64,000 nt of DNA from IMG/VR virus record IMGVR_UViG_2671180724_000008; one strand, given 5' to 3'. Origin of the DNA: a virus (Duplodnaviria; Heunggongvirae; Uroviricota; Caudoviricetes). The position numbers and the translations under genes are program-made. Below the pieces are notes generated by a model. It saw only the letters and a list, made by a program, of their open reading frames with translations. It searched no databases and was not told the origin of the DNA. Shown here in pieces: positions 5,127-62,637 of this stretch. Positions within the stretch are counted from its first letter, which is position 1. Each line of letters starts with the position of its first letter.

Positions 5127-5190
5127 GTATTGTAAGTACATACTTACGGCTATAAAATAGAAAAATAACCAAGACACTACGGAGAGTGAA

Positions 5191-5586
5191 ATGACCGTTA
5201 AACGCGAAAAACTGACAGTTGATGTTTACTATGCCTCTGAAACCGCCGAAGGTAAGAATGTGGCAAAAATCACCGTTGTTACGTACAACACCGAAACTGG
5301 TGCCGAAGTACAGGCCAGTACGATCGTGCGTAAAGGTGATGCCTCCGGCGGCGAGTACGCGACTCAATACCAGTCCATTCTCGATGCAACTGACCCGCTG
5401 CTGCTGAAAATCGAGAACTACTTCCGCCAGGTTGATGAAGAGGTGTTTGAAACCATGATGAGTATGGTTAATTCCGTATTCACCTCCAGCCTGAACACCA
5501 GCACCACCTGGATTGGCCAGTATGGTCTGCGCATTACCTCCGGCATTCCTGCTGACACCTTAATCCCTGAAAGCGTATTCGCTTAA
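5191..5586 (+). CDS. Hypothetical protein
   Basis: 131-aa ORF between two terminators; TAAGTA-type palindrome gtaagtacatacttac at 5132-5147 upstream. Confidence 0.6.
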   Translation: MTVKREKLTVDVYYASETAEGKNVAKITVVTYNTETGAEVQASTIVRKGDASGGEYATQYQSILDATDPLLLKIENYFRQVDEEVFETMMSMVNSVFTSSLNTSTTWIGQYGLRITSGIPADTLIPESVFA

Positions 5587-5596
5587 TCCTCTTTAA

Positions 5597-5622
5597 ATGG
5601 CGCGTAAACCGCGCCATTTTCT
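5597..5622 (+). terminator. Rho-independent terminator
   Basis: atggcgcg...cgcgccat hairpin plus T-run. Confidence 0.6.
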
Positions 5623-5632
5623 TATGCCCGAT

Positions 5633-5697
5633 AACAATTTGTTTTCTGCCTTATCTGCACTGCGATAATTACAACAACAAGAAAACAACATGTTTAC
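5633..5697 (+). promoter_or_regulatory. Early promoter with paired operators (aacaatttgttttc 5633-5646; gaaaacaacatgtttac 5681-5697) flanking -10 gataat
   Basis: Same architecture as 1557-1622. Confidence 0.55.
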
Positions 5698-5714
5698 GCA
5701 GTGAGGATATGCTC

Positions 5715-7294: not shown

Positions 7295-7299
7295 CGATT

Positions 7300-9047: not shown

Positions 9048-9650
9048 TCAAAAAGGCAAAATTCGTTCAACCCAATCGAACAAAACAACTATTTTTCTAC
9101 CGTTCTCGACACGTAGTGTAACCTGACAAGCATCTGCGCCTGCTGACACCCCCTCAATTTCACGGCCATCCGCCATGTACACCCTTATAGATTTGTTTGC
9201 TTTGTAGGCTTGGTTGCAAATTGCAAAAAAATCGCGGCGTGATGGCCGATTATCGACATAATCAGGGTGAACTGTTAGTCGACCTTTGAAATCGTGAGCG
9301 ATACTGTCAACCACACCTGATTCAATTGTACTAATGCGTTCAAGTGGGAGCCTTATACGATTTTCTTTGTCAAAAGGGGCTGGGCAAAGGTCAACTTTGT
9401 TACGAGATGGCATGAGGCCATAAACGTACATGCAAAACGCCTGGCCATCTTCGAGAGTGACCCTTACAGGAATTTGTTCTCTGCGCCAGAACATCAGTAG
9501 TTTTTCAACGTTAGTGTAATCTCGCGGCCAGAGTTCAGCTTGGATACCGTAGGTAATATCTTTGGTTGTCATGTCATCACAGAGTTGTTGGCAGAATGTC
9601 GATGTCACCAGAATTGCTGGTGAACACCCTGAACGCTTTTGTGTCTCCAT
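9048..9650 (-). CDS. Hypothetical protein (start uncertain; alternative ATG at 9572)
   Basis: 200-aa ORF; overlaps the upstream lipoprotein ORF by 74 nt if the 9650 start is used. Confidence 0.5.
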   Translation of the reverse strand: METQKRSGCSPAILVTSTFCQQLCDDMTTKDITYGIQAELWPRDYTNVEKLLMFWRREQIPVRVTLEDGQAFCMYVYGLMPSRNKVDLCPAPFDKENRIRLPLERISTIESGVVDSIAHDFKGRLTVHPDYVDNRPSRRDFFAICNQAYKANKSIRVYMADGREIEGVSAGADACQVTLRVENGRKIVVLFDWVERILPF

Positions 9651-9999
9651 TCTTCAGAGTCGTTTCTCGCTCTTGACGAGCGGGGTTTAGAGCACATAAA
9701 CCTGCACCTTCAAGAGATGCACCCACAATTAATTCTCCGGCATTTAAATGGAAAGTCGCTTTTTCGCCTGTAGCCAGTTTTGCGACAGTTTCGCCGTTGA
9801 TGAAAATGGAAGCATCACATCCAGCTCCTACAAAACCTGTGTCTCTCATTACCACCAACGTAGCTGGCGCTGCGCTTTGATACTTGAACACTTTGGCCTG
9901 CGGTGCTGGTTTGGCGTCATGGATTGATATTGGGCGTGATTGGCACGCGGTAAGCATCAACACTGGTAACGTTAGTAGAGGGAGAAGCGAGTATTTCAT
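9577..9999 (-). CDS. Lipoprotein
   Basis: Signal peptide with lipobox LTAC when started at MKYSLLPLL (9999). Confidence 0.55.
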   Translation of the reverse strand: MKYSLLPLLTLPVLMLTACQSRPISIHDAKPAPQAKVFKYQSAAPATLVVMRDTGFVGAGCDASIFINGETVAKLATGEKATFHLNAGELIVGASLEGAGLCALNPARQERETTLKNGDTKAFRVFTSNSGDIDILPTTL

Positions 10000-10067: not shown

Positions 10068-10346
10068 TTATTTTAATCTGCTTAATAGCGTTTCGAGATC
10101 TTCCTTTGTCATATTAGAGTTCTCATAGATACGCATGATTTTCTCACGAGTCTTAGCGGAAGCCCCGACAGAAGATATAACCTTGTCAAAGTCGGCCATT
10201 GTCAATTGTTCCAGAATGGTATTTATGACTTCAGCCTTAGACATTTTGATATTTTTTTCTTTTAGTTTCACTTGAAACTTTCCAAGTTTGTCATTGGCCT
10301 TATCAGACAATGCTACCTGACAATAAGTTGTTTTCTTTTCGCTCAT
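10068..10346 (-). CDS. Hypothetical small protein
   Basis: 92-aa Lys-rich ORF directly upstream (in transcription order) of the 8736-9999 genes. Confidence 0.5.
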   Translation of the reverse strand: MSEKKTTYCQVALSDKANDKLGKFQVKLKEKNIKMSKAEVINTILEQLTMADFDKVISSVGASAKTREKIMRIYENSNMTKEDLETLLSRLK

Positions 10347-11954: not shown

Positions 11955-11972
11955 TAAGTAAGTGATTACTTA
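11955..11972. promoter_or_regulatory. TAAGTA-N6-TACTTA palindrome in divergent promoter region
   Basis: taagtaagtgattactta between the minus-strand helicase start and the plus-strand ParB-like gene. Confidence 0.5.
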
Positions 11973-11990
11973 GTGGATTGTAGCAATAAA

Positions 11991-12671
11991 ATGGATGTAA
12001 AAATCACGATTTTGCAGGTTGATGTTGCCAACCTTCGCCCGAATACCTGGAACACCAATTCGGTTGGTGCGCAGAATTTTGAAAAACTGAAAGGTTCTAT
12101 CGAAAAATTGGGCTTTTTTAAGCCAATTTTGGCTCGTGAACTTGAAGATGGATTTTTTGAAATCCTCGGCGGCGAACATCGCTGGCGTGCTGCTATTGAG
12201 CAAGGAATTTCAACGGTTCCGGTGCTTTCTGTGGGCAAAATTAGCGATGTCGTAGCTAAACAGATGTCACTGGTGGACAACGAGCGATACGGTGAAGACG
12301 ACCAAATCGCATTGCAACGCTTCATTGAAGAAATTCAGTCAGAACTTGACTATCAACTGTCTGAAATCGCCCCGTATGACGACGAAATCTCGATGGTTTT
12401 AGCAAAAGAGGCGGCAATCGACCTTGAAGCACTGGAGGCGTTGTCTCGTGGTAGTGATGAGCCTGTCGATACCGACAAACGAGAGAAAACCGAACGTGTG
12501 GGTGCGGAACATCAGACCATGCGCTTCAAAGTAACTTTCGATGCGTCAGATCGTGTTGCAGAAACCATAAAAAACATCATCAAAGAGCAGGCTATTAACA
12601 CCGGTAATGAAATGGAGAACGCTGGTGAGGCTCTGGTGTGGCTGGTCGACTACTACAAGGAGCGTATGTAA
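11991..12671 (+). CDS. ParB-like nuclease domain protein 1
   Basis: ParB N-terminal domain signature ILGGEHRWRAA; acidic C-terminus; alternative GTG start at 11973. Confidence 0.7.
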   Translation: MDVKITILQVDVANLRPNTWNTNSVGAQNFEKLKGSIEKLGFFKPILARELEDGFFEILGGEHRWRAAIEQGISTVPVLSVGKISDVVAKQMSLVDNERYGEDDQIALQRFIEEIQSELDYQLSEIAPYDDEISMVLAKEAAIDLEALEALSRGSDEPVDTDKREKTERVGAEHQTMRFKVTFDASDRVAETIKNIIKEQAINTGNEMENAGEALVWLVDYYKERM

Positions 12672-13339
12672 TGACCAAAAAGTTTGAAATCGTATATCGC
12701 GACCCGGCAGATCTTATTCCCTATGAGATGAATGCCAAAAAGCATGATGAACAGCAGATCCGAGATCTAGCCGCAGCCATTAAAAAGCGCGGATTTGACC
12801 AGCCAATTACGGTCGATAAGAACGACGTAATTATTACTGGCCACGGCCGCCGTGAGGCTGCAATTTTTGCTGGACTTGAGCGCGTACCGGTTATTGTTCG
12901 CGATGATCTCAGTGATGACGAGGTTCGTGCGAAGCGCCTTGAAGATAACCGACTTGCCAGCATTGATTACGATGCAATTAAGCTACAGAAAGAGCTTGAG
13001 TCGCTTGTTCTGGACGATATCGAGGTTTTCGGCTTTGAAGAGCGTGAGTTGAATGTTCTCGTTGGCAGTATGACAGAAGAAATGGACACCGACTCGCTAG
13101 TTATCGATCTTGGCGAAGAAACTAAACGACAGAAGGATGAACACACCGAGATCAGTCGTGAAGTTGCAGCGGAAGAAGTACGTGTTGTCGACGTATTGGG
13201 CTTTAAAACGCTCCCTGCTGGCTCTGCCATTGTTGTTGGTGATTTGCTTGCCCACATGGAAGAAATGACGGGAGAAAGCGGGGTAGACGCATTTGTGGCA
13301 TATGCGGAGAAGATCTCTTCCGGGGAGATGGCTGCATGA
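12671..13339 (+). CDS. ParB-like nuclease domain protein 2
   Basis: ITGHGRREAA motif; aaggag RBS; ATG overlaps upstream stop (taATG). Confidence 0.7.
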   Translation: MTKKFEIVYRDPADLIPYEMNAKKHDEQQIRDLAAAIKKRGFDQPITVDKNDVIITGHGRREAAIFAGLERVPVIVRDDLSDDEVRAKRLEDNRLASIDYDAIKLQKELESLVLDDIEVFGFEERELNVLVGSMTEEMDTDSLVIDLGEETKRQKDEHTEISREVAAEEVRVVDVLGFKTLPAGSAIVVGDLLAHMEEMTGESGVDAFVAYAEKISSGEMAA

Positions 13340-14001
13340 GCAAATACATCATCAACGTATCGTTTCAGACACGCGTAAATAAAACCACGCGCACGTTGGA
13401 AATCGCTGAGTCGTTCGGGCTTGGCCTGGACGAAAAAGAGTGGACGCTTTACGACAATCTGGAGCTGGAAGTGAAGCAGGGCGATGTGGTGTACATCACC
13501 GGCCAATCCGGTTCCGGCAAATCCGTTGTGCTGCGCGAGTTGCAACGACAGATGAAGGATGAAGGGCTGTCTGTAGCCTCCATCGATGATTTTACCTTCG
13601 ATAATGAGGTTAACGTCATCGATCAGTTGGGCAAAACGACCAGTGATGCGCTTGGGTTGTTATCTATGGCTGGTCTGAACGATGCATATCTGTTTGTTCG
13701 CAAGCCTTCTGAAATGTCAGACGGCCAGAAATATCGTCTCAAGATTGCCAAACTGATTGAGTCAGGCGCTAAAGTGTGGGCTGCTGACGAGTTCGGCGCT
13801 GTTCTCGACCGTGTAACCGCTCAGGTTGTGGCGTCTAACCTCCAGCGTGCCGCTCGAAAGGTTGGTGCGACGGTAATGGTGGCGACGACTCACGAAGACC
13901 TGAAGAACGCGCTGCGCCCGGATATGCAGATCACCAAGCACTACAAAGAACGCGTGAAGGTGGAATATCACAATGGTAGTCACGATGAGGTCCATTCATG
14001 A
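13336..14001 (+). CDS. Small ABC-type/P-loop ATPase
   Basis: Walker A GQSGSGKS, signature-like SDGQKYRLKIA, Walker B VWAADEFG; ATGA overlap with upstream gene. Confidence 0.65.
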   Translation: MSKYIINVSFQTRVNKTTRTLEIAESFGLGLDEKEWTLYDNLELEVKQGDVVYITGQSGSGKSVVLRELQRQMKDEGLSVASIDDFTFDNEVNVIDQLGKTTSDALGLLSMAGLNDAYLFVRKPSEMSDGQKYRLKIAKLIESGAKVWAADEFGAVLDRVTAQVVASNLQRAARKVGATVMVATTHEDLKNALRPDMQITKHYKERVKVEYHNGSHDEVHS

Positions 14002-14888
14002 CGGACATCATCATTAAACGCTACCGCCCTGAAGAGTTTCCGCGTCATCTGGACTTTCTGGAGCGAATGACTGTTACAAAGGGAACTGTAGAGGACTGGC
14101 ACGCTCTTAAGTCGCTTCACTACAAAACAGACGGCAAACCTTTCGCGCCAACTTACTATCGCTGCGAACTTGATGACCGTCTGGTGGGCGTCGTGGTTAT
14201 GGCTTACCCGAAACTACTGTTGGCACCTCGCCACCGCATGTTTCCTAAGTTGAAACCAACCACTAATACCACCGTGGCTAACCAGTACTGGGGTCGGTAC
14301 GTGAATAACAACTTTGCGGTGATCAGTCGCTCAGTTGTGGATACTCAGTATCGTGGCGTAGGCGTCTCTTATCGAATGATTAACCTGGTTAGCAGGATGC
14401 ATGACCGGCCAATCATTGAGATCCAGTCCTCGATGAGCAAATACAATCCCTTCGCCATGAAAGCAGGGTTTAAGTTCATCCGCCCTGAGCGACCGAAGAG
14501 CTATGAAAGTGCACTGCGTGTATTCCAGCGCCATTTCCGTTCCGACCCGGGTGATAACGAGGCGATCGTCAAAGAGTTGTTCGCAATGAGCGAGTCTCGT
14601 CGTCGCCGTGCACTGCGTGATCTGGTGGCGGACTACCACAAGAACAGTTCCCTGGCAAAAGCTGGGCGGAATCGTGGCACGACGATTCAGGACATTGCCG
14701 ACAGTCTGGTGGACGAGGCCAGCATTGTGAAGTTGCTCAAGGACATTCACAACCTGAGCTTTACGTCTCCGTTGTATGGGGTGTATCGAAACCCTGACTT
14801 TGGTCGTCGACTGCCTGACACGCTGCCACTGCTGGCATTCGACAAACAACCTTTGGATAAACCGTTAGAAATTGCTTTACCGGCATAA
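13998..14888 (+). CDS. GNAT-like (acetyltransferase-fold) protein with basic C-terminal extension
   Basis: YRGVGVSYRMINLV resembles the GNAT acetyl-CoA-binding motif; ATGA overlap with upstream ATPase. Confidence 0.45.
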   Translation: MTDIIIKRYRPEEFPRHLDFLERMTVTKGTVEDWHALKSLHYKTDGKPFAPTYYRCELDDRLVGVVVMAYPKLLLAPRHRMFPKLKPTTNTTVANQYWGRYVNNNFAVISRSVVDTQYRGVGVSYRMINLVSRMHDRPIIEIQSSMSKYNPFAMKAGFKFIRPERPKSYESALRVFQRHFRSDPGDNEAIVKELFAMSESRRRRALRDLVADYHKNSSLAKAGRNRGTTIQDIADSLVDEASIVKLLKDIHNLSFTSPLYGVYRNPDFGRRLPDTLPLLAFDKQPLDKPLEIALPA

Positions 14889-14897: not shown

Positions 14898-15164
14898 ATG
14901 ACGTTAACCGATAAACAAAAGGACATCATCAAAACGCTCAATCTCGGTTATGAGCGAGGTCATCTACTTGATCTGGACGAATTGCTTGAAGTTTTGCCGT
15001 ACAAGACAACCAAGCAAAGTATCCAGTTCTCAATTCGCGCTCTGATAAAAAAGGGGCTTGTGGAGAAAGGGCATACGCGCCAACGCAGTGACAATCGCTA
15101 TCACCGCCGAACTCTTGGGTTAACCACTTTAGGTCGAGCCAAAGCGAAGTTACTGGTGATGTAA
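14898..15164 (+). CDS. Small winged-helix DNA-binding protein
   Basis: 88 aa; ALIKKGLVEK-type wHTH segment; basic C-terminus. Confidence 0.5.
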   Translation: MTLTDKQKDIIKTLNLGYERGHLLDLDELLEVLPYKTTKQSIQFSIRALIKKGLVEKGHTRQRSDNRYHRRTLGLTTLGRAKAKLLVM

Positions 15165-15188
15165 TCGGTCTGGGAGCTTATTTAAAGA

Positions 15189-15243
15189 CCTGCTTCTGTA
15201 TATATAAATAATAAGTAACTTATTAAATATATACGGAAGCAGG
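15189..15243. repeat. 55-bp composite palindrome, copy 1 (17-bp GC-anchored arms cctgcttcYgtatatat around an AT-rich core containing aataagtaacttatt)
   Basis: Read directly; second copy at 47394-47448 in inverted orientation judged by flank match gtcttt(t)aaa. Confidence 0.85.
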
Positions 15244-15993: not shown

Positions 15994-17249
15994 TGGCAAT
16001 CCCGTCCTCGCTCAGTCTTGTGCAACTGCATTCTGGACAGATGAAAGTCTTCCAGTCTCCGCATCGATTTAAAGTTGTTTGTGCTGGTCGACGCTGGGGA
16101 AAATCCCGGTTGTCGATCTCCACTATTATTCGTGCGGCGGCAAAGGAAAAAAAGCAAAGGGTCTGGTATGTCGCTCCTACTTACCAGATGGCTCGCCAGA
16201 TTTTGTGGGACGATCTACAGGAAGTTCTGCCTCGTAAGTGGGTTAGGAAAAAGAACGACACCACGATGACAATCGTGTTGAAGAACGGTTCGGAGATCGC
16301 CCTCAAAGGTGCTGATAAGCCTGACACTCTGCGCGGCGTAGCGTTGCATTTTGTAGTGCTTGATGAATTTCAGGATATGAAGGCTGACACCTGGTACAAG
16401 GTGTTACGACCTACTCTTTCATCGACACGCGGCGGTGCACTTATCATTGGTACGCCAAAAGGTTTCTCGGAATTTCACAAACTGTGGACTATAGGCCAGA
16501 ACGTAGAGCTGCAAAGAAAGGGACAGTGGAAGAGCTGGCAGTTTGTAACTGCCGATTCTCCGTTTGTGCCTACGGCGGAAATTGAAGCTGCTAAGAACGA
16601 TATGGACCCGAAATCGTTCGCTCAGGAGTACCTGGCGAGCTTTGAGAACATGTCCGGGCGCGTTTACTACCCGTTCGATCGTAACGTGCATGTAAAACCG
16701 CTTCAGTTCAACCCTCGGTTGCCTATATGGGTAGGGCAGGACTTCAACATTGACCCGATGTCTTCAGTAATTTTGCAACCTCAGCCAAATGGTGAGCTAT
16801 GGGCAATTGATGAATTGGTGCTCTTTTCCTCTAACACGGCAGAGGTTTGTGATGAGCTTGAGAGACGCTTCTGGCGCTGGAAATCACAGATAACGGTATT
16901 TCCAGATCCGGCAGGTGCTTATCGCCAACATGCTCGCGGGGAGTCTGACGTCGACATATTCAAAGAGAAGGGATTCTTACGTGTCGATTATTCGAAAAAG
17001 CACCCGCCAATTGCGGATCGTGTTAATGCTGTTAACCGAATGCTGATGACCGCATCTGGAGATATCCGGTTGTATATCGATCCGAAGTGCAAGCATTTGA
17101 TTGATTCACTGGAAAAAGTCATCTACAAGCCTGGAACACGAGATATGGATAAGACAGGTGGCATTGAGCATAGTGCAGACGCATTGGGCTATCCAGTACA
17201 TCGTAGGTATCCAGTCAAAAACCGTGTTATTCTTGGTGGTTCTCGATAG
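15993..17249 (+). CDS. Terminase large subunit
   Basis: Walker A CAGRRWGKS, Walker B VVLDEF, C-terminal nuclease-type acidic residues; ATGG overlap with TerS stop. Confidence 0.85.
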   Translation: MAIPSSLSLVQLHSGQMKVFQSPHRFKVVCAGRRWGKSRLSISTIIRAAAKEKKQRVWYVAPTYQMARQILWDDLQEVLPRKWVRKKNDTTMTIVLKNGSEIALKGADKPDTLRGVALHFVVLDEFQDMKADTWYKVLRPTLSSTRGGALIIGTPKGFSEFHKLWTIGQNVELQRKGQWKSWQFVTADSPFVPTAEIEAAKNDMDPKSFAQEYLASFENMSGRVYYPFDRNVHVKPLQFNPRLPIWVGQDFNIDPMSSVILQPQPNGELWAIDELVLFSSNTAEVCDELERRFWRWKSQITVFPDPAGAYRQHARGESDVDIFKEKGFLRVDYSKKHPPIADRVNAVNRMLMTASGDIRLYIDPKCKHLIDSLEKVIYKPGTRDMDKTGGIEHSADALGYPVHRRYPVKNRVILGGSR

Positions 17250-17275
17250 GTAAGTAATTATCTAAGGTTATTCAA

Positions 17276-18850
17276 ATGGAATTGAACGACAAACAAATTA
17301 AGGATCTGGTGGCGCGACGCCACCCGGAATACGAAAAGAAAAAAGAACATTGGGACTTCCTCGCCAGCACTTACGCTGGCGGGCGTGGTTGGTTTACAGA
17401 CAATATCTTTCGTTACTTTAAAGAGGGAGATCAGGAGTTTAAGGAGCGAGTTGAGCGTGCTTATCGCTTCAACCACACTCGTGAGGTGGTAAACCTCATC
17501 AACAAATATCTCTTTAAAGAAGACATTCATAGAAATATCGAAGAGGCACCAGAGCAGATCCGCAATTTCTGGAAACGTGCGACTCGCCAGAATGCCTCTA
17601 TTGACTCATTTATGGCCGCTATTGATTTGCAGTCGTCTATTTACGGTCGCATATGGGTTGTTGTCGATAGCACGATGAGTGGTGATGTTGAGTCAGTAGC
17701 TGACGAGAAAAAGAAAGATGCTCGCGCCTACGCCTACTGGATTTCACCTCAGCAAATGCTGGATGTGGCATGGGACGACGACGGGAATATGTTGTGGGCG
17801 TTAATTGTGGAAGTCGCTCGTGATGACGCAGATCCTTTTACTTCTACAGGTCAGGAATACCAACGTTATCGTCTGTGGACACAAAACGAGTGGTATCTGT
17901 TCCGTGAGGAAGTGAAGAAGGGCGCTGGTGGAGCAGGTCGCCGTCAGGCAAAAGTTATTTTAGAGGATAGCGGTGAGCATAATCTCGGCGTAGTTCCTGT
18001 GTTTCCTGTTGATTGTATTGGAGAAAGTGAATCACCGTATTTCAGCCCATCGTTGATCGATGATATCGCTTATCTTGATCGTGCGGTTGCAAACTATCTG
18101 TCAAACCTTGATGCCATTATTCAGGATCAGACATTTAGCCAGTTGGCTATACCGGTACAGTCGCTTTTACCTGGTGATGAAAACCACACTAAAGTGCTTG
18201 AAATGGGCACAAAGCGAGTCTTCACCTACGATTCTGAAGGTGGAAACCAGCCGTTTTATTTGTCACCAGACCCGAAACAAGCTCAGATGATCATCACTAC
18301 GATTAAGACGGTGATTAACGAAATCTACCATTCAGTTGGTGTCGCTGGTGAGCGAACGAAGCAGGACAACGCACAGGGAATTGATAACTCATCTGGTGCC
18401 GCAAAAATGTATGACTTCCAGCGTGTAAATAGCTTGCTTGTCACAAAAGCAGAGCGTCTGGAAAGGGCTGAACGCCAAATCATGCTACTGGTTGCGAAAT
18501 GGATGGGGGTAGATCTGGACGAAGACCACTCTTTAATTGCGTATCCAGAAAGTTTCGATATTCGTGGCCTTACAGATGAATTTTCTGTTGCCGAGAAACT
18601 GTCATTACTTCAGGCACCGGACTCTGTACGTCGTCACCAGATGGAAATGCTTATTGAGAAGATTTTCCCGAACATTACTGAGGCGATGAAAAAGGAATTT
18701 GATAAAGATCTCTTGAATTTTCCGCCAAAAAATGATCTAAATACCCTTGAAAATAAGTCAGTACTTACTTATGATCGTGGTGCAGCCCAAGAAAGCGGGC
18801 AAGATCAACCCCGAGGGAATGGGGACTCATCTACTCAAGAGAACGAGTGA
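17276..18850 (+). CDS. Portal protein
   Basis: 524 aa, immediately after terminase; size and position typical. Confidence 0.75.
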   Translation: MELNDKQIKDLVARRHPEYEKKKEHWDFLASTYAGGRGWFTDNIFRYFKEGDQEFKERVERAYRFNHTREVVNLINKYLFKEDIHRNIEEAPEQIRNFWKRATRQNASIDSFMAAIDLQSSIYGRIWVVVDSTMSGDVESVADEKKKDARAYAYWISPQQMLDVAWDDDGNMLWALIVEVARDDADPFTSTGQEYQRYRLWTQNEWYLFREEVKKGAGGAGRRQAKVILEDSGEHNLGVVPVFPVDCIGESESPYFSPSLIDDIAYLDRAVANYLSNLDAIIQDQTFSQLAIPVQSLLPGDENHTKVLEMGTKRVFTYDSEGGNQPFYLSPDPKQAQMIITTIKTVINEIYHSVGVAGERTKQDNAQGIDNSSGAAKMYDFQRVNSLLVTKAERLERAERQIMLLVAKWMGVDLDEDHSLIAYPESFDIRGLTDEFSVAEKLSLLQAPDSVRRHQMEMLIEKIFPNITEAMKKEFDKDLLNFPPKNDLNTLENKSVLTYDRGAAQESGQDQPRGNGDSSTQENE

Positions 18851-20660: not shown

Positions 20661-20694
20661 TCAGTATAGTAGATAAGTAGTTATCTATGTTAAA

Positions 20695-47393: not shown

Positions 47394-47448
47394 CCTGCTT
47401 CCGTATATATAAATAATAAGTAACTTATTAAATATATACAGAAGCAGG
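47394..47448. repeat. 55-bp composite palindrome, copy 2
   Basis: cctgcttccgtatatataaataataagtaacttattaaatatatacagaagcagg followed by tcttttaaaag; matches copy 1 at 15189-15243. Confidence 0.85.
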
Positions 47449-47555
47449 TCTTTTAAAAGACACCACCAGAACAACTCCCTTCCGTTTCCACTTCCAAAAA
47501 CTGCCACCAGTCGCTATCATCCGCCCATTGTGATAAGTAAGTAACTACCTACCAG

Positions 47556-50952: not shown

Positions 50953-51027
50953 CAAACGCCGTTAAAATAAGTAGATGATTACTTATCTTTCTGTAAGAAT
51001 ACTTTCATCTGTTAGCTAGGAGTTGGT

Positions 51028-51810: not shown

Positions 51811-51865
51811 TCTCTCCGCGCGTCGTTTTTTACGCAAATAACGATAGGTAAGTACAAGATTATTT

Positions 51866-52348
51866 ATGGCGGTAGTTGTGAAAGCTGATTTGTCAAAAAT
51901 CCCCTCTATTTCAGGAAATAATGGTTATTCACTTCGTTGTGAGGAAGTAAAGATAAACGGTGAGTCGGCATATTGCAGCTACTCCGTTTGCCAGCACACC
52001 ATTCTTGCCTTCAAAGAAAACCGTCTTCCTCGAACTTCATTCCAGTCGTGCGCAACCACTATCAAAGCAGGCAAATGCAAGGCGTTAAAAATGATGGTTG
52101 AAGAGATTCGTAAAGGAGAATCTCTGTATTTCGAAGATATGACCGCGCTCATTAAGGAGGTTGAAGAACGGAATAAACAAGCCAGAACTATAAAACGAAA
52201 ACGTGACAGTGTAACGATTAATAGCATGGTTAAGAAGAGCACCACATCACAAACAGCGATCACTGACGTGTATGCGGCGTTGCTTGAAGAAACAACAAAA
52301 GAAACACATGAGCAAATCGATCAACATATGGAGGCAAAACAACAATGA
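51866..52348 (+). CDS. Hypothetical protein (Cys-containing, basic)
   Basis: 160-aa ORF. Confidence 0.5.
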   Translation: MAVVVKADLSKIPSISGNNGYSLRCEEVKINGESAYCSYSVCQHTILAFKENRLPRTSFQSCATTIKAGKCKALKMMVEEIRKGESLYFEDMTALIKEVEERNKQARTIKRKRDSVTINSMVKKSTTSQTAITDVYAALLEETTKETHEQIDQHMEAKQQ

Positions 52349-54478: not shown

Positions 54479-54868
54479 AAACATATTGATAAGTATTTAC
54501 TTACTTATCTTTTGTGTATAAGATGACTTTGTTTTCGTTGAGACGCGACTGTTTGAACTTAAATACAAGTGCAAACGAAGAAGTCTATCTGGCAGTAGCC
54601 TAATAAGCCAAACACCAGCGAGGTCAGTTTCCAGCCTCGTTACCGAAATGGGACACACTGAGCGAGTGTGATTGCAGAACGCAGGAGGGAACATTCATGT
54701 TCCCTCCGATGAAGTAACAGAATGGGCGGTTGGTATATTTTCAACTCCATATGACTCCCGGATTCTTAGCCACTGACCGCCCATCCTGTTACGTCATTTT
54801 GTTCAATTATGTCGTTTATACTGGGTTAAAAAGCGGCGACGTAGCCCGGCTGGTATGGTTAGCCAGCA

Positions 54869-54990
54869 CACAACGTTGAGGCCATTACATTTTTATCAAT
54901 TCTAAGGTTCTATTCACAGAGATACCGGCGAGCGTTGATATGTAACATGTTGGGCAAACATTCAATCGGAGTAGTGGCCTCAACGTTGTG
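54869..54990. repeat. Long-range inverted repeat (20-bp arms cacaacgttgaggccattac / gtagtggcctcaacgttgtg, ~80-nt loop)
   Basis: Read directly; one of five large hairpins in the tRNA region. Confidence 0.6.
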
Positions 54991-55255
54991 AAGACGGGAT
55001 TGTTGTGTAGGTTTAACCACTGTTGCCATTGGTGCCTGTTTTCACAACAAATGATTCCATACATCACATTGTATAAATTACAAAGTAGGTGCTGTCCTCA
55101 GAAACATCATCTACTTAAAGATTTTGCCTTCTACTATTGAGCGAAGTCGAAAGCGTCTGGCACTAACGAAAAGTGCAAGTAGCGGTGCGTTTCCTGGCAG
55201 AAACTAAACCGTCGCGATTGGCACTGTTGAGTAATAAATACTGGCAGTGCTGAAT

Positions 55256-55331
55256 TGATGGTGTAGCTCAGCGGTAGAGCAGTTGGCTGTTAACCAACTG
55301 GTCGGTGGTTCGAATCCACCCACCATCGCCA
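55256..55331 (+). tRNA. tRNA-Asn (anticodon GTT), phage-type
   Basis: Manual cloverleaf fold: acceptor GATGGTG/CACCATC, anticodon loop CTGTTAA, T-loop GGTTCGAATCC, encoded CCA; differs from E. coli tRNA-Asn. Confidence 0.85.
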
Positions 55332-55336
55332 ATTTA

Positions 55337-55423
55337 GGGGAGTTAGTCCGTAGAGGTAGCGGTGTAGACTGTAAATCTACTGTCATTGCGACTCGGGTGG
55401 TTCGACTCCATCACTCCCCACCA
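55337..55423 (+). tRNA. tRNA-Tyr (anticodon GTA) with long variable arm
   Basis: Acceptor GGGGAGT/ACTCCCC, anticodon loop CTGTAAA, T-loop GGTTCGACTCC, encoded CCA. Confidence 0.8.
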
Positions 55424-55427
55424 AATT

Positions 55428-55503
55428 GCCGGTTTAGCTCAGTTGGTAGAGCGCCTGCCTTGTAAGCAGGATGTCAGCGGTTCGTGTCCGTTAACCGGCA
55501 CCA
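55428..55503 (+). tRNA. tRNA-Thr (anticodon TGT)
   Basis: Acceptor GCCGGTT/AACCGGC, anticodon loop CTTGTAA, T-loop GGTTCGTGTCC, encoded CCA. Confidence 0.8.
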
Positions 55504-55507
55504 ACAT

Positions 55508-55595
55508 AATATTGAGAACATTGGCGTAACGGGGTCATATCCCAATCTATGAATAAATGTTACGTTGCCGCGTGACAACCAGTGTTCTCAACATT
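55508..55595. repeat. Nested inverted repeat immediately 3' of tRNA-Thr (aatattgagaacattgg / ccagtgttctcaacatt with inner cgtaac/gttacg)
   Basis: Read directly; candidate processing element or small structured RNA. Confidence 0.55.
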
Positions 55596-56170
55596 GTGGT
55601 GAATGCACAGGCTGATGTGCCGCAACTACAGTAGTGCGCGCTTTGCGGGGCTTGCTACAACCCTGTGTCGGAGATCAGCGCCGACCATCACAATTTGGCT
55701 CTCTTGCAACAGCATAACGCTGAAATATGTCCAACCTGGTGCGGCCTGTTCACCCGCCGTTAGCTCCACGAAACGGAGCGCACAACAGATAAGAGAACTT
55801 CCCATATGGGGCTTGGCTTAAATGCATCGAGTTCTCTTATCGCTGTGTCACAGACAAATTTCCGACAGCCCTGTTTATCATCGGACGCAACCTAAAAGGT
55901 CGAGGCAAAGCCAGGTAATAGCGGAGGGAGTGACACAGCACACAACAGGTAAGAGCATTTGTAGAGTTCGACTCTCTACCGTGGGCTTTTTCCCGCGATG
56001 CGAGCCATAAATGCTCTTTCCGTTGTGGTGGATTCGCAGACTGATGCGATAGCTTTCTTGGATGTTAGGGAAATGCGGCCGCAAATCTTCCCTTTCGCGA
56101 GCGGTGATCGTCCGTAGTCCTAATTGGCTGCACCGTATGCCGGAGATTCAGTACCGGCCACCACAACGGC

Positions 56171-56257
56171 CGGAGAGTAGGGAGCATGGTGCTCAAGCGG
56201 TCTTGAAAACCGTCCCATTGTGCAAACGATGATGGTTCGATTCCATTACTCTCCGCC
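56171..56257 (+). tRNA. tRNA-Ser (anticodon TGA) with long variable arm
   Basis: Acceptor GGAGAGT/ACTCTCC, anticodon loop CTTGAAA, T-loop GGTTCGATTCC, encoded CCA. Confidence 0.8.
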
Positions 56258-56260
56258 AGA

Positions 56261-56453: not shown

Positions 56454-57788
56454 TCATGCCAAATTATCCAGATTTCTTTTCTTTTTTTCAATTATATTTC
56501 TCGCGCCAGAAAAAATTTTACTCAAAATAATTGATTTGCTTGCTCTATTATTAAGATGTAACAACGCGCTATAAAATACATAGTTATCTATTTTACTATT
56601 TAAAGTATTCCCAAGCTTCCCGTTATATGTGCTATTAATAGTATTAAAATATACATGTTCAGGACCTATATTACAAATACCCCTATCAACTCGCTTTAAA
56701 TAATGTTTAACTAAAGAAATAGCATCTTCCTTATCATTAATAACATAAAGTCCTGAGCGTTTACCTAGCTTGCTGTCCGAGAATAATTTATAACCAACAA
56801 GTTCATTTAACGTATTATCCACTTTTGTCAACTCTTTGTTGGCAATCTCCAAATAATACTCAATCTCTTTCTCCATATTACTTATTAAAGAGTTAAATTC
56901 TGCTCGTAACAAATCACCACCAGGTGATTTATAACTCCATAAAATTGAATTGGTAATACGTACTACGTCAGATACTTCTGGTTTCTCTGAATAGTTTTTG
57001 TATCTAGTGCAAATAATGCTGTGCTTTATATATTCTCTAACTAATGATCGATAATCCCTTTCGAAAAGGTTTTTGACATCTAGTCTTCCATTGCTTGTTG
57101 TTATTAAGGTGGTGTTTAAAACTGGGTCGCCTTCAAAAAAATTATATTTATTTAGTAATCGTTTTAGCTTGTGTGAATTATGTGATGTTTCGCCATAATA
57201 ATTTATCCCAAAAATAGCAATTATTAGCATAACATCAGGAGTGATGAAATGTCGTAATTGCTCGGCATAAACTTTTTTATCTTCGATTTTCGAAGATGGA
57301 GAGTAAAAACCTTTGTCTATATATTCTAATATTGAAACAATATTACTAACATAACGTATAAAAACTTGATTCATTACAACGGAATCATAAACCTGATGCA
57401 AATAATCTACTCTCAAGTTGTTTTTTATTTTTTCCCCTGTACTAGATGATAACTCTTCTTTTACCTGCCCAAGTAGCTTTTCGTGGTGCTCCAGCAATGT
57501 TTTAAACCATTGTTCAAATGATGATTTTCTTGCCTCAGTTAATGAATCTGATGTTATCTGGACAGCTTTCATAGCTGCTTTCGCACTTTTCTTTGCTTCA
57601 TAAGCGTTCCATGCTGAAGCACAAAAAGCTGCCGCCGTGATGCAACTGGTAAAAATAGAAATCCTATCTGCAACATTCAAGCTCCAGAACCAATCAGACG
57701 ATGAAATCAAAACCACAGATATTACGGGAACAATGAAAATCAAAACAGGCATGTATGTACTCGCTCTAATAGTTATTAGTCGAGGCAA
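56454..57788 (-). CDS. Low-GC 444-aa membrane-anchored protein of unknown function (candidate abortive-infection or defence cargo)
   Basis: Two N-terminal transmembrane segments then a large Lys/Asn/Tyr/Ile-rich soluble domain; strongly AT-rich codon usage unlike the rest of the element; own promoter and terminator. Confidence 0.6.
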   Translation of the reverse strand: MPRLITIRASTYMPVLIFIVPVISVVLISSSDWFWSLNVADRISIFTSCITAAAFCASAWNAYEAKKSAKAAMKAVQITSDSLTEARKSSFEQWFKTLLEHHEKLLGQVKEELSSSTGEKIKNNLRVDYLHQVYDSVVMNQVFIRYVSNIVSILEYIDKGFYSPSSKIEDKKVYAEQLRHFITPDVMLIIAIFGINYYGETSHNSHKLKRLLNKYNFFEGDPVLNTTLITTSNGRLDVKNLFERDYRSLVREYIKHSIICTRYKNYSEKPEVSDVVRITNSILWSYKSPGGDLLRAEFNSLISNMEKEIEYYLEIANKELTKVDNTLNELVGYKLFSDSKLGKRSGLYVINDKEDAISLVKHYLKRVDRGICNIGPEHVYFNTINSTYNGKLGNTLNSKIDNYVFYSALLHLNNRASKSIILSKIFSGARNIIEKKKRNLDNLA

Positions 57789-58386: not shown

Positions 58387-59490
58387 ATGAAAAATAGCTT
58401 TGACAGAGCACGCGCTGCGGAGAACACCTCAAAAGAGGCGATTGAGTATCTCGAAAGAGCATCTCAAATGCAGGCCGTTATGATCTCGCAGGTTAGCAAT
58501 GACATGAGATTCTCGGACGCATTCATGTTATTCACTCGCTTATCTCTGCTTATAACCAGACGTCGGCCAGAGATCGCTGTTCATTGTATTTTGATACATG
58601 TTTTGCCGCACATTGCTGATGTAAAAGTAAGTGACATTAATAGGTTCATGGTGAACCAACTGGTAAACCCACTAATACTGGATGGCAAAATTGTTATGGG
58701 CCGCCGCGTTTTCTCTCTGATGAAGCAGTTCCTTAGCTGGTGCGCCTTCCAGGGGATGATAGACGTGTCACCGTTAAACGATATGTCACTAAACAAAGTT
58801 GCCGGTGGCGCAAAGCCCACACCTCGCGAGCGGAAGCTGACCGACGCAGAGGTATGGGTGTTCTGGAATATATGGGACTACTTCAATGTGTGCGCTGGTA
58901 CAAAATGGGCGGCCAGGCTGTGTCTTGTATCAGCAAGACGACCTGACGAAGTACTGCGGGCTAAAAAAAGTGAGTTCAATCTTAAGCGTGGGGTTTGGAA
59001 TCAAGGCAAGAGAAACAAGTCAGCACGTGAGCATTCGCTGCCTTTAAGCACATTAATGCGCACATGCATTGAAGAGTTGTTCGAATACGGTAAAGACAGC
59101 CAGTGGCTCGTGCCTTCGAATAAAAAAATCGGGAAAGACCTTCCTATGTCTAAAGTGGCAATAGCCCAGGCATTACGTCGTATTCTGGAACGACCAGAAC
59201 TGATGGAGCTTGAGCCATTTACACCCCGAGATTTGCGCCGTACTGCGCGTAGTTACTTCCCAGCATTAGGCATAAGCCAGGAGGTATCACGCAAAATCAT
59301 GAACCACAGTCTTGAGGGGATAGATCGGGTCTACGACCGGCACGATTATATGGACGAGATGCGAGACGCCTTAGAAAGTTTCTCGACGTACATCGCATCA
59401 ATCGTAGAGCAACCGGATTTAGACGAAATTGACCACAAATTCAAGGGAGATCGTCTATCAACAGAGCTTATTCGTGTAAATTTTTCATAG
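58387..59490 (+). CDS. Tyrosine integrase (site-specific recombinase)
   Basis: C-terminal catalytic pattern: Arg in RRPDEV, HSLEGIDRVYDRHDY region with His/Arg and terminal Tyr; 367 aa. Confidence 0.85.
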   Translation: MKNSFDRARAAENTSKEAIEYLERASQMQAVMISQVSNDMRFSDAFMLFTRLSLLITRRRPEIAVHCILIHVLPHIADVKVSDINRFMVNQLVNPLILDGKIVMGRRVFSLMKQFLSWCAFQGMIDVSPLNDMSLNKVAGGAKPTPRERKLTDAEVWVFWNIWDYFNVCAGTKWAARLCLVSARRPDEVLRAKKSEFNLKRGVWNQGKRNKSAREHSLPLSTLMRTCIEELFEYGKDSQWLVPSNKKIGKDLPMSKVAIAQALRRILERPELMELEPFTPRDLRRTARSYFPALGISQEVSRKIMNHSLEGIDRVYDRHDYMDEMRDALESFSTYIASIVEQPDLDEIDHKFKGDRLSTELIRVNFS

Positions 59491-59871
59491 AGACTTTATG
59501 GCCTCAACAACCTTTTGTGATGCGCCTTTCTCTTTACCGAATCGCTCGTTATATGCAGCAAGAACCTGTTTTTCGTCCTCGTTAAGAGGAGCGGTGCCTT
59601 CTTTGTATAAAAATGCTGCGAGTTCAGGTTGGCGTTCTTCCAGCACCATCATCATAAGACGACTTGGCTCAATACCCAGCGCCAGCGCCAGCGGACGAAC
59701 CTTATCGATAGGCAAAGGAATTTTGCCACTTTTAATTAAAGAAAGGTTGTTGGCATTTTTATAACCAATAAGTCTGGCTATTTGGGCCTGACTCATAGGT
59801 GAGGATTCAATCAGCCCTGCGATAAAAGCAGCATAGCGACTTTCTATAAATTCAATCTTGTTGTCAGACAT
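59485..59871 (-). CDS. XRE-family helix-turn-helix transcriptional regulator (CI/Cro-like repressor)
   Basis: HTH segment SQAQIARLIGYKNANNLSLIKSG; convergent with integrase, 6-nt overlap. Confidence 0.75.
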   Translation of the reverse strand: MSDNKIEFIESRYAAFIAGLIESSPMSQAQIARLIGYKNANNLSLIKSGKIPLPIDKVRPLALALGIEPSRLMMMVLEERQPELAAFLYKEGTAPLNEDEKQVLAAYNERFGKEKGASQKVVEAIKSL

Positions 59872-60122
59872 TGTTACAACCTTTGCGCGTTTAATTCTCT
59901 CTGGTAAGTGCTTACCGATATTACATCAAAGGTTAGGGTTGTAAAGCTATTATCATTTTTTTCGGCAGGCACTTGTAAGACCGAGCAAAGGTCCATGCAT
60001 GGAGAAAAACTAGCCCAAAATAGGTAAGAAAATTAACTTGCATCTGATATAGATGTATTCAGTATTGATACAAATTTTAGTAGTATTCCTTACCATAGTA
60101 TAAGTTAGAATGGATTGATTGA

Positions 60123-60335
60123 ATGAAAACCACTATTTCCAGCCTAATCGCTCTTGAGATCGGACACGTACAGAAATTAGCTGATGAGTGTGTAGCTGAC
60201 ATCCTCACCGATCTACCGAATGAGCAGATTCAGGTTGGTGTGAATGACACAACTGGCTTTATATTCGAACTTAACAACAAACGCTTCACGCTTCTCAATA
60301 CCGGCTCCGGGTCTTTAGCCGTCAGAATCTGTTAA
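60123..60335 (+). CDS. Hypothetical small protein
   Basis: 70-aa ORF divergent from the repressor gene. Confidence 0.4.
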   Translation: MKTTISSLIALEIGHVQKLADECVADILTDLPNEQIQVGVNDTTGFIFELNNKRFTLLNTGSGSLAVRIC

Positions 60336-60433
60336 CCCCTCTTCTCCCTGCGCGAATGGCTTAGTTCCCTGTTCGCGCAGTGCTACATTAAACACACTAG
60401 TAAATAATTTGTTTTCATAACAAAGGATTAGCC

Positions 60434-62542
60434 ATGTCTAAAAAACGTTCCATCAAAGAGGTTCAGGACTTCCGTGACAGTGTAAAACGAGTAGTCGCTC
60501 TCCTTTCAGGTAAAAACATCCCTGTTGCAGAACGAGGGGACGACGCTTATGTACGCTATAACGATGATGGAGAGCCAATTCTCGTAAACATCCCATCAAT
60601 CCCGGATAACGCAACACCGGCATTGATGAATGCTGTGCGCGGATTTCTCGATCATGAGGTTGCTCACATTTTGTTTACCGATATTCGTGTGTCCAACAAA
60701 ATGAGAGAAAAAGGACGCGTTCCTTCCTGGTCGCTATGGAATGCCTTAGAAGACGTGTTCATCGAGCGAAAAATGGGGCAGGTCTTTAACGGAACAAGAC
60801 GTAATCTGATGGCAACTCAGCGCCTTATAATCGAAAAAGTCTTTAAACCAAAGGCTTCAGAGGCTATTGCTTATTGTGGCAAAGATCAGCGCGCGCTTTT
60901 TCTAAACTTCTTTCTCTGTCCGGTTGTAAGAGCCTGGGATGGCCAAGCACCGTTCGTAGATTTCATGGATGAATACTGGCCTGTCATTGAGAAACCAATT
61001 TCATTATTAAAAGAACATGGTATCGATGTGGCCGTGCGTAACATGTCTTGCACCGAGGATTGTGTAAAGGTGGCTGCGACCATAGCTAAGATCCTCAAAG
61101 ACACTGAAAGTGAAAGCAAAGGTAAGGAGTCAGCTCCGGGAAAAACTTCCGATCCTTCAGACGCTGACCAGACGGATGCCTCTGGAGAAAACAATGAAGA
61201 CAACGAAGATCATGAGACACCCTCAGCGTTAGATAATCACAAATCTATCGAATCAGAATCACACAGTAAGCACAAACATGATAATAACGACAGTGATGAT
61301 TCAGATAATTCTGAATCATCAGAAACAATATTCGATGATACAGAAAATGATAAAGAGGTATCAGATTCTGATGCTTCTGATAACGCGGCGTCAGAATCAT
61401 TAACCGCTGGCCACGAAAAAAGAAAAACGACAGAAGACGGCTCTTCAGATATTCCAACTCCGTCAAAAATGAGTCTGGAAGAGGCTTTAGAGGAGCTGGA
61501 TAGCATAGAAGATGAAGTCGGAGGCATGACAGAAGATGCTCTATCCGAAACGATTAAAAGCGAGTTAACAGAAAGCTCGAAAAGCGAATACAGGCCATAC
61601 AATCGCTCATACGACTTCATCGGCTCGATTGATCAGGCAGAAGCCCATATCAAACGGCTTATTAAAACATTCTCCGATATTGATTTAGGAGGATATCCAA
61701 TCAGCCGCTATCGCATCGTTCCTGAAGGCAACCAGCTCTTCGACAAATATATTGAAAAGCATCTTTCGTCAGGTGTTTCGTCGACGCTGGCAAAAGACCT
61801 GGAGCGAGCAATAGCAAGCAGAAACAGAGTTCAGTTTATACCGGGCCAGCGTCGGGGGCGCATTCATGGTTCTAGTATCTACAGATTAGCAATGAATGAT
61901 GATCGCGTGTTTCGTAAAAAAGAAGAATCTAAAGCCGTTAACGCCTGTGTTCAACAAGTGATTGATTTATCAGGTTCAATGAGTGGCGAAACGATAAAAC
62001 TAGCTCTTGCAAGTGCATATACCATCGCCGATGCTCTTGATCGAATAAATGTTCCCAACATTATCACCGGCTTCACTACATTTGGCAGTCATCTGGCAGC
62101 GATAGAACTTAAGGCTATCAAGTATGAGTTCTCTCGCTTTGAATCTTTAATGCTACCTATCATCAAAAATTGGAATGAAAAAGCAAATTCTCGCGAAGTT
62201 CGCTCACGTATGGGGTGCGTAGGCTACACATTCCCACTTCTTAATAACGTGGATGGTGAAAGCATAGCCAGCCTTGCATCGTTATTTTCCGGTCGCATGG
62301 AGGACAGGAAGATCATGCTTGTTCTGAGCGATGGCGAGCCGCTGGCTGTTGGGAGAGGTTTTGACGCTCATTTGCGTTCGGTTGCGAAGCAAATTGAAAC
62401 GCAGACTGACATTGATTTGATGGCAATTGGCATCATGACTGACGCACCGGAGAGATTTTACGCAAATCATGCCCTGGTAACGAGCGTTGATAGTCTTGGT
62501 TCATCTGTAGTTACTGAACTATCTCGTATCATTTTGAAGTGA
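60434..62542 (+). CDS. von Willebrand factor A (vWA) domain protein with acidic Ser/Asp-rich linker (CobT-like)
   Basis: C-terminal MIDAS motif DLSGSMSGE; long acidic low-complexity linker around residues 230-330; 702 aa. Confidence 0.7.
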   Translation: MSKKRSIKEVQDFRDSVKRVVALLSGKNIPVAERGDDAYVRYNDDGEPILVNIPSIPDNATPALMNAVRGFLDHEVAHILFTDIRVSNKMREKGRVPSWSLWNALEDVFIERKMGQVFNGTRRNLMATQRLIIEKVFKPKASEAIAYCGKDQRALFLNFFLCPVVRAWDGQAPFVDFMDEYWPVIEKPISLLKEHGIDVAVRNMSCTEDCVKVAATIAKILKDTESESKGKESAPGKTSDPSDADQTDASGENNEDNEDHETPSALDNHKSIESESHSKHKHDNNDSDDSDNSESSETIFDDTENDKEVSDSDASDNAASESLTAGHEKRKTTEDGSSDIPTPSKMSLEEALEELDSIEDEVGGMTEDALSETIKSELTESSKSEYRPYNRSYDFIGSIDQAEAHIKRLIKTFSDIDLGGYPISRYRIVPEGNQLFDKYIEKHLSSGVSSTLAKDLERAIASRNRVQFIPGQRRGRIHGSSIYRLAMNDDRVFRKKEESKAVNACVQQVIDLSGSMSGETIKLALASAYTIADALDRINVPNIITGFTTFGSHLAAIELKAIKYEFSRFESLMLPIIKNWNEKANSREVRSRMGCVGYTFPLLNNVDGESIASLASLFSGRMEDRKIMLVLSDGEPLAVGRGFDAHLRSVAKQIETQTDIDLMAIGIMTDAPERFYANHALVTSVDSLGSSVVTELSRIILK

Positions 62543-62637
62543 TTAAAACAGCCTTAACGATAAGTAACTACTTATGATAGTTAATGATATATTTATATAA
62601 GAAGTTGAACGCTCATTAGAGAACAAAGGAAAAACGC

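Follow-up and report, generated by a model that had tools for sequence, protein, structure and literature searches.

The IMG/VR virus record IMGVR_UViG_2671180724_000008, whose whole 64,000-nt stretch is called the window here, is, to judge by sequence identity, ~60% of an SSU5-like siphovirus carried as a plasmid. Phage-plasmids of this SSU5-like kind occur commonly in E. coli, Salmonella and Klebsiella; fluoroquinolones induce them, and they can have resistance genes among their cargo. A 20-kb slice of the window is 97% identical to Escherichia phage Cyrano (pLF82, OV696614) and to CMS-2020a, 81% identical to Salmonella phage SSU5 and ~78% identical to Klebsiella phage-plasmids, and the gene context used below was taken from the Cyrano and SSU5 annotations. 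The plus strand holds almost all lytic genes, grouped into many short operons, and the minus strand most of the maintenance and moron genes. The plus-strand lytic operons carry at their starts a conserved symmetric palindrome built from the half-sites TAAGTA and TACTTA, a putative protein-binding site that, on the sequence evidence, defines the lytic regulon of SSU5-like phage-plasmids. There are ~25 sites per genome, one per operon start. Behind them stand structural and lysis genes (portal, scaffold, decoration, major tail, tail tip, tail fibre and holin) as well as the helicase/primase, CYRAN_34/35-ligase, tRNA, CobT, UvsY, SSB, SbcD, NrdA, ThyX, exonuclease and Dam operons, among others. 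A preliminary description of this DNA had correctly placed the motif before portal, major tail, tail fibre, lysis, replication and vWA/CobT genes and in the helicase/ParB divergent region, but its suggestion of a late-gene regulator does not fit the second group, from helicase/primase and ligase to SSB, UvsY, SbcD, NrdA, ThyX, Dam and CobT.

The exact pattern TAAGTA-N2-6-TACTTA occurs seven times in the window, at 5133, 11955, 24249, 37662, 50968, 54490 and 62561, against 0.00 expected from 100 dinucleotide shuffles, and by these pattern counts the palindromic sites reported earlier are real. An eighth site from the same report, 20672-20687, is imperfect (TAAGTA-GT-TATCTA), yet it too is real, because its orthologue in Klebsiella relatives is a near-perfect palindrome. 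When the spacer is fixed at N2 and zero, one or two mismatches are allowed, 5, 6 and 14 sites are found, compared with 0, 0.1 and 1.4 expected. Enrichment is limited to spacers of 2 and 6, with spacers of 0, 1, 3, 4, 5, 7 and 8 at background, and the N6 matches are mostly N2 palindromes lengthened by one 4-nt unit (TAAG-TAAG... or ...TACT-TACT); sites that exist only in the N6 form are few, namely 50968 and those of distant relatives (loci L073-L079). With either purine-pyrimidine pair allowed at the third position (TARGTA/TACYTA), along with one mismatch, the window has 14 sites, and the genome as a whole, for which the window was combined with the remainder of Cyrano, has 23-26. Intergenic DNA makes up just 10.4% of the window but holds twelve of these 14 sites (binomial p = 1.2e-10).

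The half-site-rich variants of the preliminary description were borne out in part. The exact sequence GGTAAGTA has five matches against 0.94 expected, at 17249, 24247, 42448, 51847 and, on the minus strand, 16178; two of these (17249 and 42448) lie near positions that had been listed, but the third is at 51847, not 51834, and the sequences at 30748 and 47532 are variants of GATAAGTA rather than GGTAAGTA. The entry at 59902 is another palindrome altogether, GGTAAG-TG-CTTACC, and the 55-bp palindromes that were said to share the motif core contain TAAGT-A-ACTTA, with the same half-sites at another spacing, and are not the same motif.

In an alignment of 20 sites the consensus is RR-TAAGTA-NN-TACTTA-YY, the flanks being weaker but also symmetric (a.GA ... 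TC.t), or, in extended form, a.GATAAGTA-NN-TACTTATC.t, and its information content is symmetric. Hexamers resembling a -10 element begin at the last TA (TATCAT, TATGAT, TACTAT), and they are equally frequent at the other end of the palindrome when the opposite strand is read, the two strands having 35% and 30% at offset 12 and 17% and 22% at offset 16 over a background of 0.9%. A directional promoter was accordingly rejected on the scores, the best -10-like matches averaging 4.1 and 4.5 on the two sides (random 0.96) with no asymmetry, and no -35 element was found at a constant offset from the palindrome. Because the -10-like flanks are equal on both strands, the element is a symmetric palindrome of ~22 bp and not a directional promoter consensus, and this equality, together with the symmetric information, argues for the site of a dimer. 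None of the site sequences contains the CTG...CAG of a LexA/SOS box (CTGT-N8-ACAG).

The fourteen window sites follow the genetic map as follows. Site 1 (5131-5148, TTGTAAGTACATACTTACGG) is a perfect N2 palindrome just after an intrinsic terminator and 44 nt ahead of the open reading frame (ORF) at 5191, and the TTG running into its TAAGTA at 5133 lies within a predicted TTGTAA-17-TAAAAT promoter, so that the palindrome overlaps the -35 element. Site 2 (11955-11972, TAAGTAAGTGATTACTTA) occupies the divergent region between a UvsW-like helicase operon on the minus strand and a ParB_N operon on the plus strand, and a perfect minus-strand TATAAT for the helicase operon lies directly against it. 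Site 3 (17247-17264, TAGGTAAGTAATTATCTA) fills the 26-nt gap between terL and the portal gene, ending 11 nt before the portal ATG, while site 4 (18754-18771, TAAGTCAGTACTTACTTA) lies within the portal gene, at its 3' end and 100 nt upstream of the ORF at 18872, where the palindrome forms the 17-bp spacer of a predicted TTGAAA-17-TATGAT promoter. Site 5 (20672-20687, GATAAGTAGTTATCTA) follows the major capsid gene, with an intrinsic terminator hairpin (20694-20716) directly next to it. Site 6 (24247-24264, GGTAAGTATATACTTACT), before the major tail gene, contains at 24249 the -10 element of a predicted TTGAAT-18-TATACT promoter and is followed by a covarying hairpin at 24269-24283.

Farther along, site 7 (30748-30763, GATAAGTAAGTACTAA) precedes the gene for minor tail protein L and is followed by a GC hairpin at ~30777-30800, and site 8 (37660-37679, AATAAGTATGTACTTACTTA) precedes the tail fibre gene and is likewise followed by a hairpin (37681-37703). 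The holin gene begins 51 nt downstream of site 9 (42446-42463, TAGGTAAGTACACACCTA), and site 10 (47532-47551, GATAAGTAAGTAACTACCTA) ends ~3 nt before the Shine-Dalgarno sequence of the first ORF in the helicase/primase operon. Site 11 (50966-50987, AATAAGTAGATGATTACTTATC) has the N6 form only and lies 42 nt before the ORF at 51028, the orthologue of CYRAN_34, which is leaky in the lysogen; site 12 (51845-51866, ATAGGTAAGTACAAGATTATTTA) is weak and overlaps the annotated ATG at 51866. Site 13 (54488-54509, GATAAGTATTTACTTACTTATC) is followed by ~750 nt devoid of ORFs of at least 60 aa and then by four clustered tRNA genes (Asn, Tyr, Thr and Ser), and an Rfam search of this stretch, 54510-56258, returned nothing beyond the tRNAs; site 13 may drive a tRNA or non-coding transcript. 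Site 14 (62559-62576, CGATAAGTAACTACTTATGA) stands 63 nt upstream of a CobT/vWA-like gene.

Overlap with predicted sigma-70 promoters is much more frequent at the palindromes than at random positions, the mean score being 7.0 against 2.4, and 14 of 25 sites reach at least the 95th percentile of random positions. In some strong predicted promoters the palindrome occupies the whole 17-bp spacer, as in TTGAAA-17-TATGAT at 18754 and in TTGAAA-17-TATCAT at Cyrano 57451, both of which are conserved in SSU5. Its register with respect to the -35 and -10 elements has at least two forms, the palindrome lying in the spacer, over the -35 (5133) or around the -10 (24249), and the register shifts by 4-8 bp. 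From its end to the next start codon the distance is 0-100 nt, and three sites (17251, 47534 and 51849) leave no room for a start site and leader. The earlier proposal of a cis-regulatory site at operon starts, for an activator or repressor encoded by the element, is supported by enrichment, intergenic placement and conservation, whereas the idea of a distinct promoter class is not borne out, the -10-like flanks being symmetric and the position of the palindrome relative to predicted sigma-70 elements and start codons being variable. At two places the palindrome stands directly upstream, not downstream, of an intrinsic terminator (window 20672-20716 and Cyrano ~67884), an order conserved in all relatives examined, and a transcript starting at the palindrome would have an incomplete terminator stem.

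Cyrano, SSU5, Klebsiella-type relatives and 80 IMG/VR loci have retained the sites at orthologous positions across a sequence divergence of ~20-35%, while the flanks of the sites diverge. Weaker window sites, such as those between terL and portal, after the capsid gene and before tail gene L, are near-perfect palindromes in the Klebsiella-type relatives. Ahead of the major tail gene, GTAAGTATATACTTA shows no variation among 42 distinct sequences from relatives, although the preceding 8-9 nt and the following stem vary. In a group with only 64% identity in the major tail protein the form TAGGTA-N6-TACCTA is used, and the site and its reader therefore appear to co-evolve. The stem that follows in the 5' untranslated region (UTR) of the major tail gene (24269-24283) keeps its pairing through compensatory changes in five of six pairs across relatives, and an invariant GGAAAA-AGGAG-TTTTCC stem comes next (24304-24320), presenting the Shine-Dalgarno sequence in its loop.

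Expression of every Cyrano gene in LF82 lysogens is available from the S1 Table of a published RNA-seq study (PMC9928086). In lysogens grown in lysogeny broth (LB), the genes downstream of the motif are at background, and the genes that are expressed have no motif: toxin-antitoxin modules, the parA operon, repA, CYRAN_45, CYRAN_43 and CYRAN_98. Exceptions with moderate expression are CYRAN_34, which has the N6-only and weakest operator, and the helicase/CYRAN_117 operon adjoining site 2. After 6 h in macrophages the prophage is partly de-repressed, CYRAN_46 rising by ~6 log2, and step-ups of 2.4-3.7 log2 appear at the sites before CYRAN_12, 34, 56 and 60. As evidence of promoter activity these data were set aside, with step-ups at five sites, no overall enrichment and cells that were mostly uninduced; they are compatible with silent, inducible promoters and do not settle the sign of regulation. 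In the same table CYRAN_43 stands ~700-fold above the prophage background in lysogens, and CYRAN_98, an S24 peptidase of 129 aa, is strongly expressed there.

A scan of IMG/VR for GATAAGTANNTACTTATC returned SSU5-like contigs and, in addition, IMGVR_UViG_3300030106_001081, a phage from a marine metagenome (62,280 bp, 41% GC), which was analysed as loci L093 (1-14870), L120, L092, L199 and L278. It holds at least 10 near-identical copies of aaCCGATAAGTAATTACTTATCAaaa, containing GATAAGTA-NN-TACTTATC, and these 24-mers lie mostly 19-23 nt upstream of the start codons of plus-strand replication genes; its structural module has no copies. In 56 of its 62 kb, neither an RNA polymerase gene nor a regulator shared with the SSU5-like phages was found, and the only protein in common was a tail-fibre fragment. 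The recurrence suggests that a regulator-site pair, or a factor that reads the site, may extend beyond one phage group. In the marine locus L092, positions 9665-9800 carry two variant sites, TAAGTGATTACTTA, 66 bp apart, followed by four tandem TAATGTTCGG repeats, an arrangement that may be a replication origin.

The reading favoured here, held at somewhat less than an even chance, is that the palindrome is the operator of a dimeric regulator of the phage-plasmid acting as a global repressor of lytic promoters. The operator would be 18-22 bp long, with TARGTA/TAYYTA variants and a form extended by 4 bp, and one copy would lie in or against the core promoter of each of ~25 lytic operons, which serve replication, nucleotide metabolism and lysis and encode the head and tail. 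In the plasmid state the regulator, encoded by the element itself, would occupy all sites and block RNA polymerase at promoters otherwise competent for sigma-70; at a few sites the bound protein would be a roadblock next to the ribosome-binding site, and induction would inactivate it and release all lytic operons together. Between activation and repression the balance leans to repression, because a variable register and a start-codon distance of 0-100 nt would be tolerated by a repressor and not by a stereospecific activator. The silence of most downstream genes in lysogens, the leakiness behind the weakest operator and beside site 2, and the lack of the motif at promoters active in the lysogen also fit repression. 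Several observations weigh against it: a convincing -35 element is absent at most sites, the bias of the predicted promoters towards the gene (forward over reverse) is weak (p = 0.10), and RNA-seq step-ups across all adjacent gene pairs are not significantly more frequent at motif sites (5/22) than elsewhere (17/76; Fisher p = 0.59). Moreover, the marine sites have no E. coli-type promoter around them and look more like a dedicated promoter element. As an operator, the motif would be a phage regulon signal of a fairly ordinary kind, not known to have been described for the SSU5-like group, and a search of the available literature returned no description of it or of any operators of that group. 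A single operator offers a handle for finding the master regulator, allows operon structure to be predicted in hundreds of related elements and could serve as a simple reporter of induction.

The closest known system in logic is phage P1, which offers parallels for both signs of regulation. The P1 plasmid prophage has 17 or more operators for its repressor C1, which are asymmetric 17-mers (ATTGCTCTAATAAATTT). Both elements are plasmid prophages with many small lytic operons that have one common site each, and the parallel would extend to an overlap with sigma-70 promoters, predicted in the SSU5-like elements, and to silence in the lysogen; the SSU5-type site differs in being a symmetric palindrome, and tblastn found no C1 homologue (E >= 4). 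Late genes of P1 are under a separate activator, Lpa, whereas the structural genes of SSU5-like phages carry the same site as the replication genes. Lpa acts through 11 palindromic late-promoter boxes, in which a 9-bp inverted repeat in the '-22 region' is combined with a -10 element (PMC10695390). Read directly from NC_005856 and OP279344, the boxes have the form AAGT(T/G)ACTT-N4-TAnnnT, and they resemble the SSU5-type sites in their AAGT/ACTT half-sites upstream of or overlapping a -10-like hexamer, in the usual lack of a clear -35 and in their many copies. They differ in spacing (AAGT-N1-ACTT in P1, AAGT-N4-ACTT here), and the SSU5-type motif, which is absent from P1, is not restricted to late genes and has no fixed distance to the -10 (offsets 12 and 16, both strands). 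Homology to Lpa was not detected either, by tblastn (E >= 0.7) or with PF25716, which matches none of 60 Cyrano hypothetical proteins and P1 Lpa itself at 3e-57.

By analogy with Lpa, the palindromes may instead be an activator-dependent class of lytic promoters, in which the palindrome replaces the -35 and an activator made after induction recruits host RNA polymerase to a weak -10 that overlaps the right half-site or comes after it. This is possible, although less probable than repression, and it is retained mainly because of the resemblance of the marine contig to a dedicated promoter element, with its 24-mers at a narrow distance from start codons and no sigma-70 promoter. The shortage of good -35 elements fits it, as do the TAnnnT-like hexamers beginning at the terminal TA or 4 nt later, the identical 4-mer half-sites of the palindromic activator boxes of P1, the step-ups at CYRAN_12, 34, 56 and 60 in the partly induced prophage, and a gene for a MarR-like winged-helix protein located shortly before terS, where late activators are typically encoded. 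At four structural-gene sites a GC hairpin begins 5-7 nt past the right half-site, as though transcripts started at a set distance from the palindrome. On the other hand, the symmetric -10-like flanks may be a mere part of the palindrome, several sites already lie within strong -35/17/-10 promoters, the register against the promoter elements shifts, three or four sites are too near the ATG to be upstream of that gene's start site, no Lpa homologue was found, the motif is not late-specific, and c123 and the motif genes do not change in parallel from one condition to another.

The remaining explanations differ in what would read the palindrome. It is unlikely, although the recurrence in the marine phage raises the idea, that the same 18-bp GATAAGTA-NN-TACTTATC is the class-defining signal of lytic or replication operons in two lineages that share no detectable regulator, the enterobacterial SSU5-like phage-plasmids and the 62-kb marine phage; in such a case it would be read directly by RNA polymerase, by a nucleoid protein or by some such conserved part of the host, or a tiny, fast-evolving and horizontally mobile transcription factor would travel with the site as a portable regulon. 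That the palindrome is simply the site of a conserved host factor or of RNA polymerase seems improbable. Such a factor would explain the identical 18-mer in two unrelated lineages, one of them without a detectable homologue of an SSU5-like regulator in 56 of its 62 kb, and boxes of the RcsAB and GacA/UvrY type have the similar form TAAG-N6-CTTA; but small DNA-binding proteins often escape BLAST and HMM searches, which here covered 56 kb of the marine phage, the hosts are probably very different, and the motif is not known to match any enterobacterial factor consensus. The likeness to LuxR/GerE-type boxes lies in spacing and is one of format only, and no GerE domain was found among the 60 Cyrano hypothetical proteins. 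Improbable, too, are binding or loading sites for the ParB_N proteins beside site 2, with a role in silencing and maybe segregation. Two proteins with this domain are encoded directly downstream of that site, and the KorB operators (OB) of plasmid RK2 and the SopB sites of phage N15 are likewise short palindromes dispersed in promoter regions at variable distances, here of 14-18 bp, that act in global silencing. Their likeness is one of format, the sequences being unrelated; no helix-turn-helix (HTH) or other DNA-binding domain was detected beyond ParB_N, the ParB gene is silent in the lysogen, 25 sites are many for a centromere, and partition is more likely to be the task of a separate ParA and its small partner protein, encoded at 45435-46462.

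The least probable of the explanations is an RNA hairpin in 5' UTRs or intercistronic regions, which could stabilise the mRNA, mark a processing site or be a translational operator, for instance for the FljA/Hfq-like protein encoded at 9048-9650. Some sites do adjoin a ribosome-binding site or ATG, the distance to the ATG is fixed in the marine phage, and an FljA-like RNA-binding repressor is encoded. As RNA, however, the palindromes form weak hairpins, with a mean minimum free energy of -3.0 kcal/mol and several at 0, and positions that depart from Watson-Crick pairing comprise 11 of the G.T type and 15 others, 10 of them A.C, so that wobble pairs are not preferred and the hairpin is unsupported on both counts. 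Conservation extends to the half-site sequence and not to pairing alone, and an Rfam search gave tRNAs and no structured RNA element. Weak pairing, the lack of wobble bias and the strict spacing of 2 or 6 together favour recognition of double-stranded DNA by a dimer.

If a protein encoded by the element binds the palindrome, several candidates can be named by location, predicted fold or expression, all of them unproven. The HTH repressor CYRAN_45 (59485-59871) was excluded as the binder, because SSU5 lacks the int/repressor/CYRAN_46 module yet retains the sites; moreover, the intergenic region of CYRAN_45 itself has another palindrome, GGTAAG-TG-CTTACC. A Pfam search of the 60 Cyrano hypothetical proteins gave only HTH_19, S24 peptidase and the FljA-like protein, and the first of these is presumably the CYRAN_45 orthologue, which gave the same match separately. 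One candidate is an 88-aa protein encoded at 14898-15164 on the plus strand, immediately upstream of terS, with a predicted MarR-like mini winged helix. It is conserved in the SSU5-like elements of E. coli, Salmonella and Klebsiella, and its AlphaFold2 (AF2) model, with a predicted local distance difference test (pLDDT) score of 82, matches MepR, MarR and APE_0880a in Foldseek (E ~1e-4, template modelling score 0.7-0.78), so that a dimeric DNA binder is plausible on the model. MarR operators resemble the SSU5-type site in format only, with an AT-rich 8-2-8 layout and an overlap with -35 and -10 elements, which for the SSU5-type site are predicted ones; unlike MarR, the 88-aa protein is a minimal winged helix that lacks the MarR dimerisation helices, and it is unexpressed in the LB lysogen, which weighs against the repressor reading. 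A weak candidate is the 92-aa protein encoded at 10068-10346 on the minus strand, in the helicase operon adjoining site 2, whose Cyrano orthologue is expressed in the lysogen; its reading as a ribbon-helix-helix repressor was not supported, the AF2 pLDDT being 50 with no PDB, Pfam or hhalign signal.

Some neighbouring features are set down here in their own right. The repressor region (59871-60123) contains the perfect palindrome GGTAAG-TG-CTTACC at 59903-59916, 32 nt upstream of the HTH repressor gene on the minus strand, with more GGTAAG/CTTACC half-sites at ~60023 and ~60090, and it is probably the operator of that repressor; the module of int, repressor and a 70-aa ORF is wholly absent from SSU5. 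Two copies of an imperfect palindrome of ~55 bp, CCTGCTTCYGTATATATAAATAATAAGT-A-ACTTATTAAATATATACRGAAGCAGG, lie at ~15183-15240, between the MarR-like gene and terS, and at ~47388-47445, before the helicase operon; they were read by eye, an automated repeat search not having reported them. Their centre, AAGTAACTT, fits the P1 Lpa-box consensus AAGTNACTT, and these two centres are the only fits to the P1 box in the window.

The operon at 11973-14888, which has the helicase divergent region on one side and the MarR-like gene with terS on the other, encodes an ABC-type ATPase, the two ParB_N-domain proteins and a 296-aa protein without a Pfam match, and it is silent in the lysogen. The 200-aa protein encoded at 9048-9650 on the minus strand matches PF03614 (FljA, repressor of phase-1 flagellin; E = 2.5e-84), with a weak Hfq-like match at its C-terminus; it is conserved in SSU5 and Cyrano and may be a moron acting on host flagellin mRNA. 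Finally, the segment 56001-58000 has a GC content of 36%, against ~46%, contains a 444-aa minus-strand ORF (56454-57788) and differs from the corresponding region of Cyrano, and it is probably an inserted moron or defence gene.

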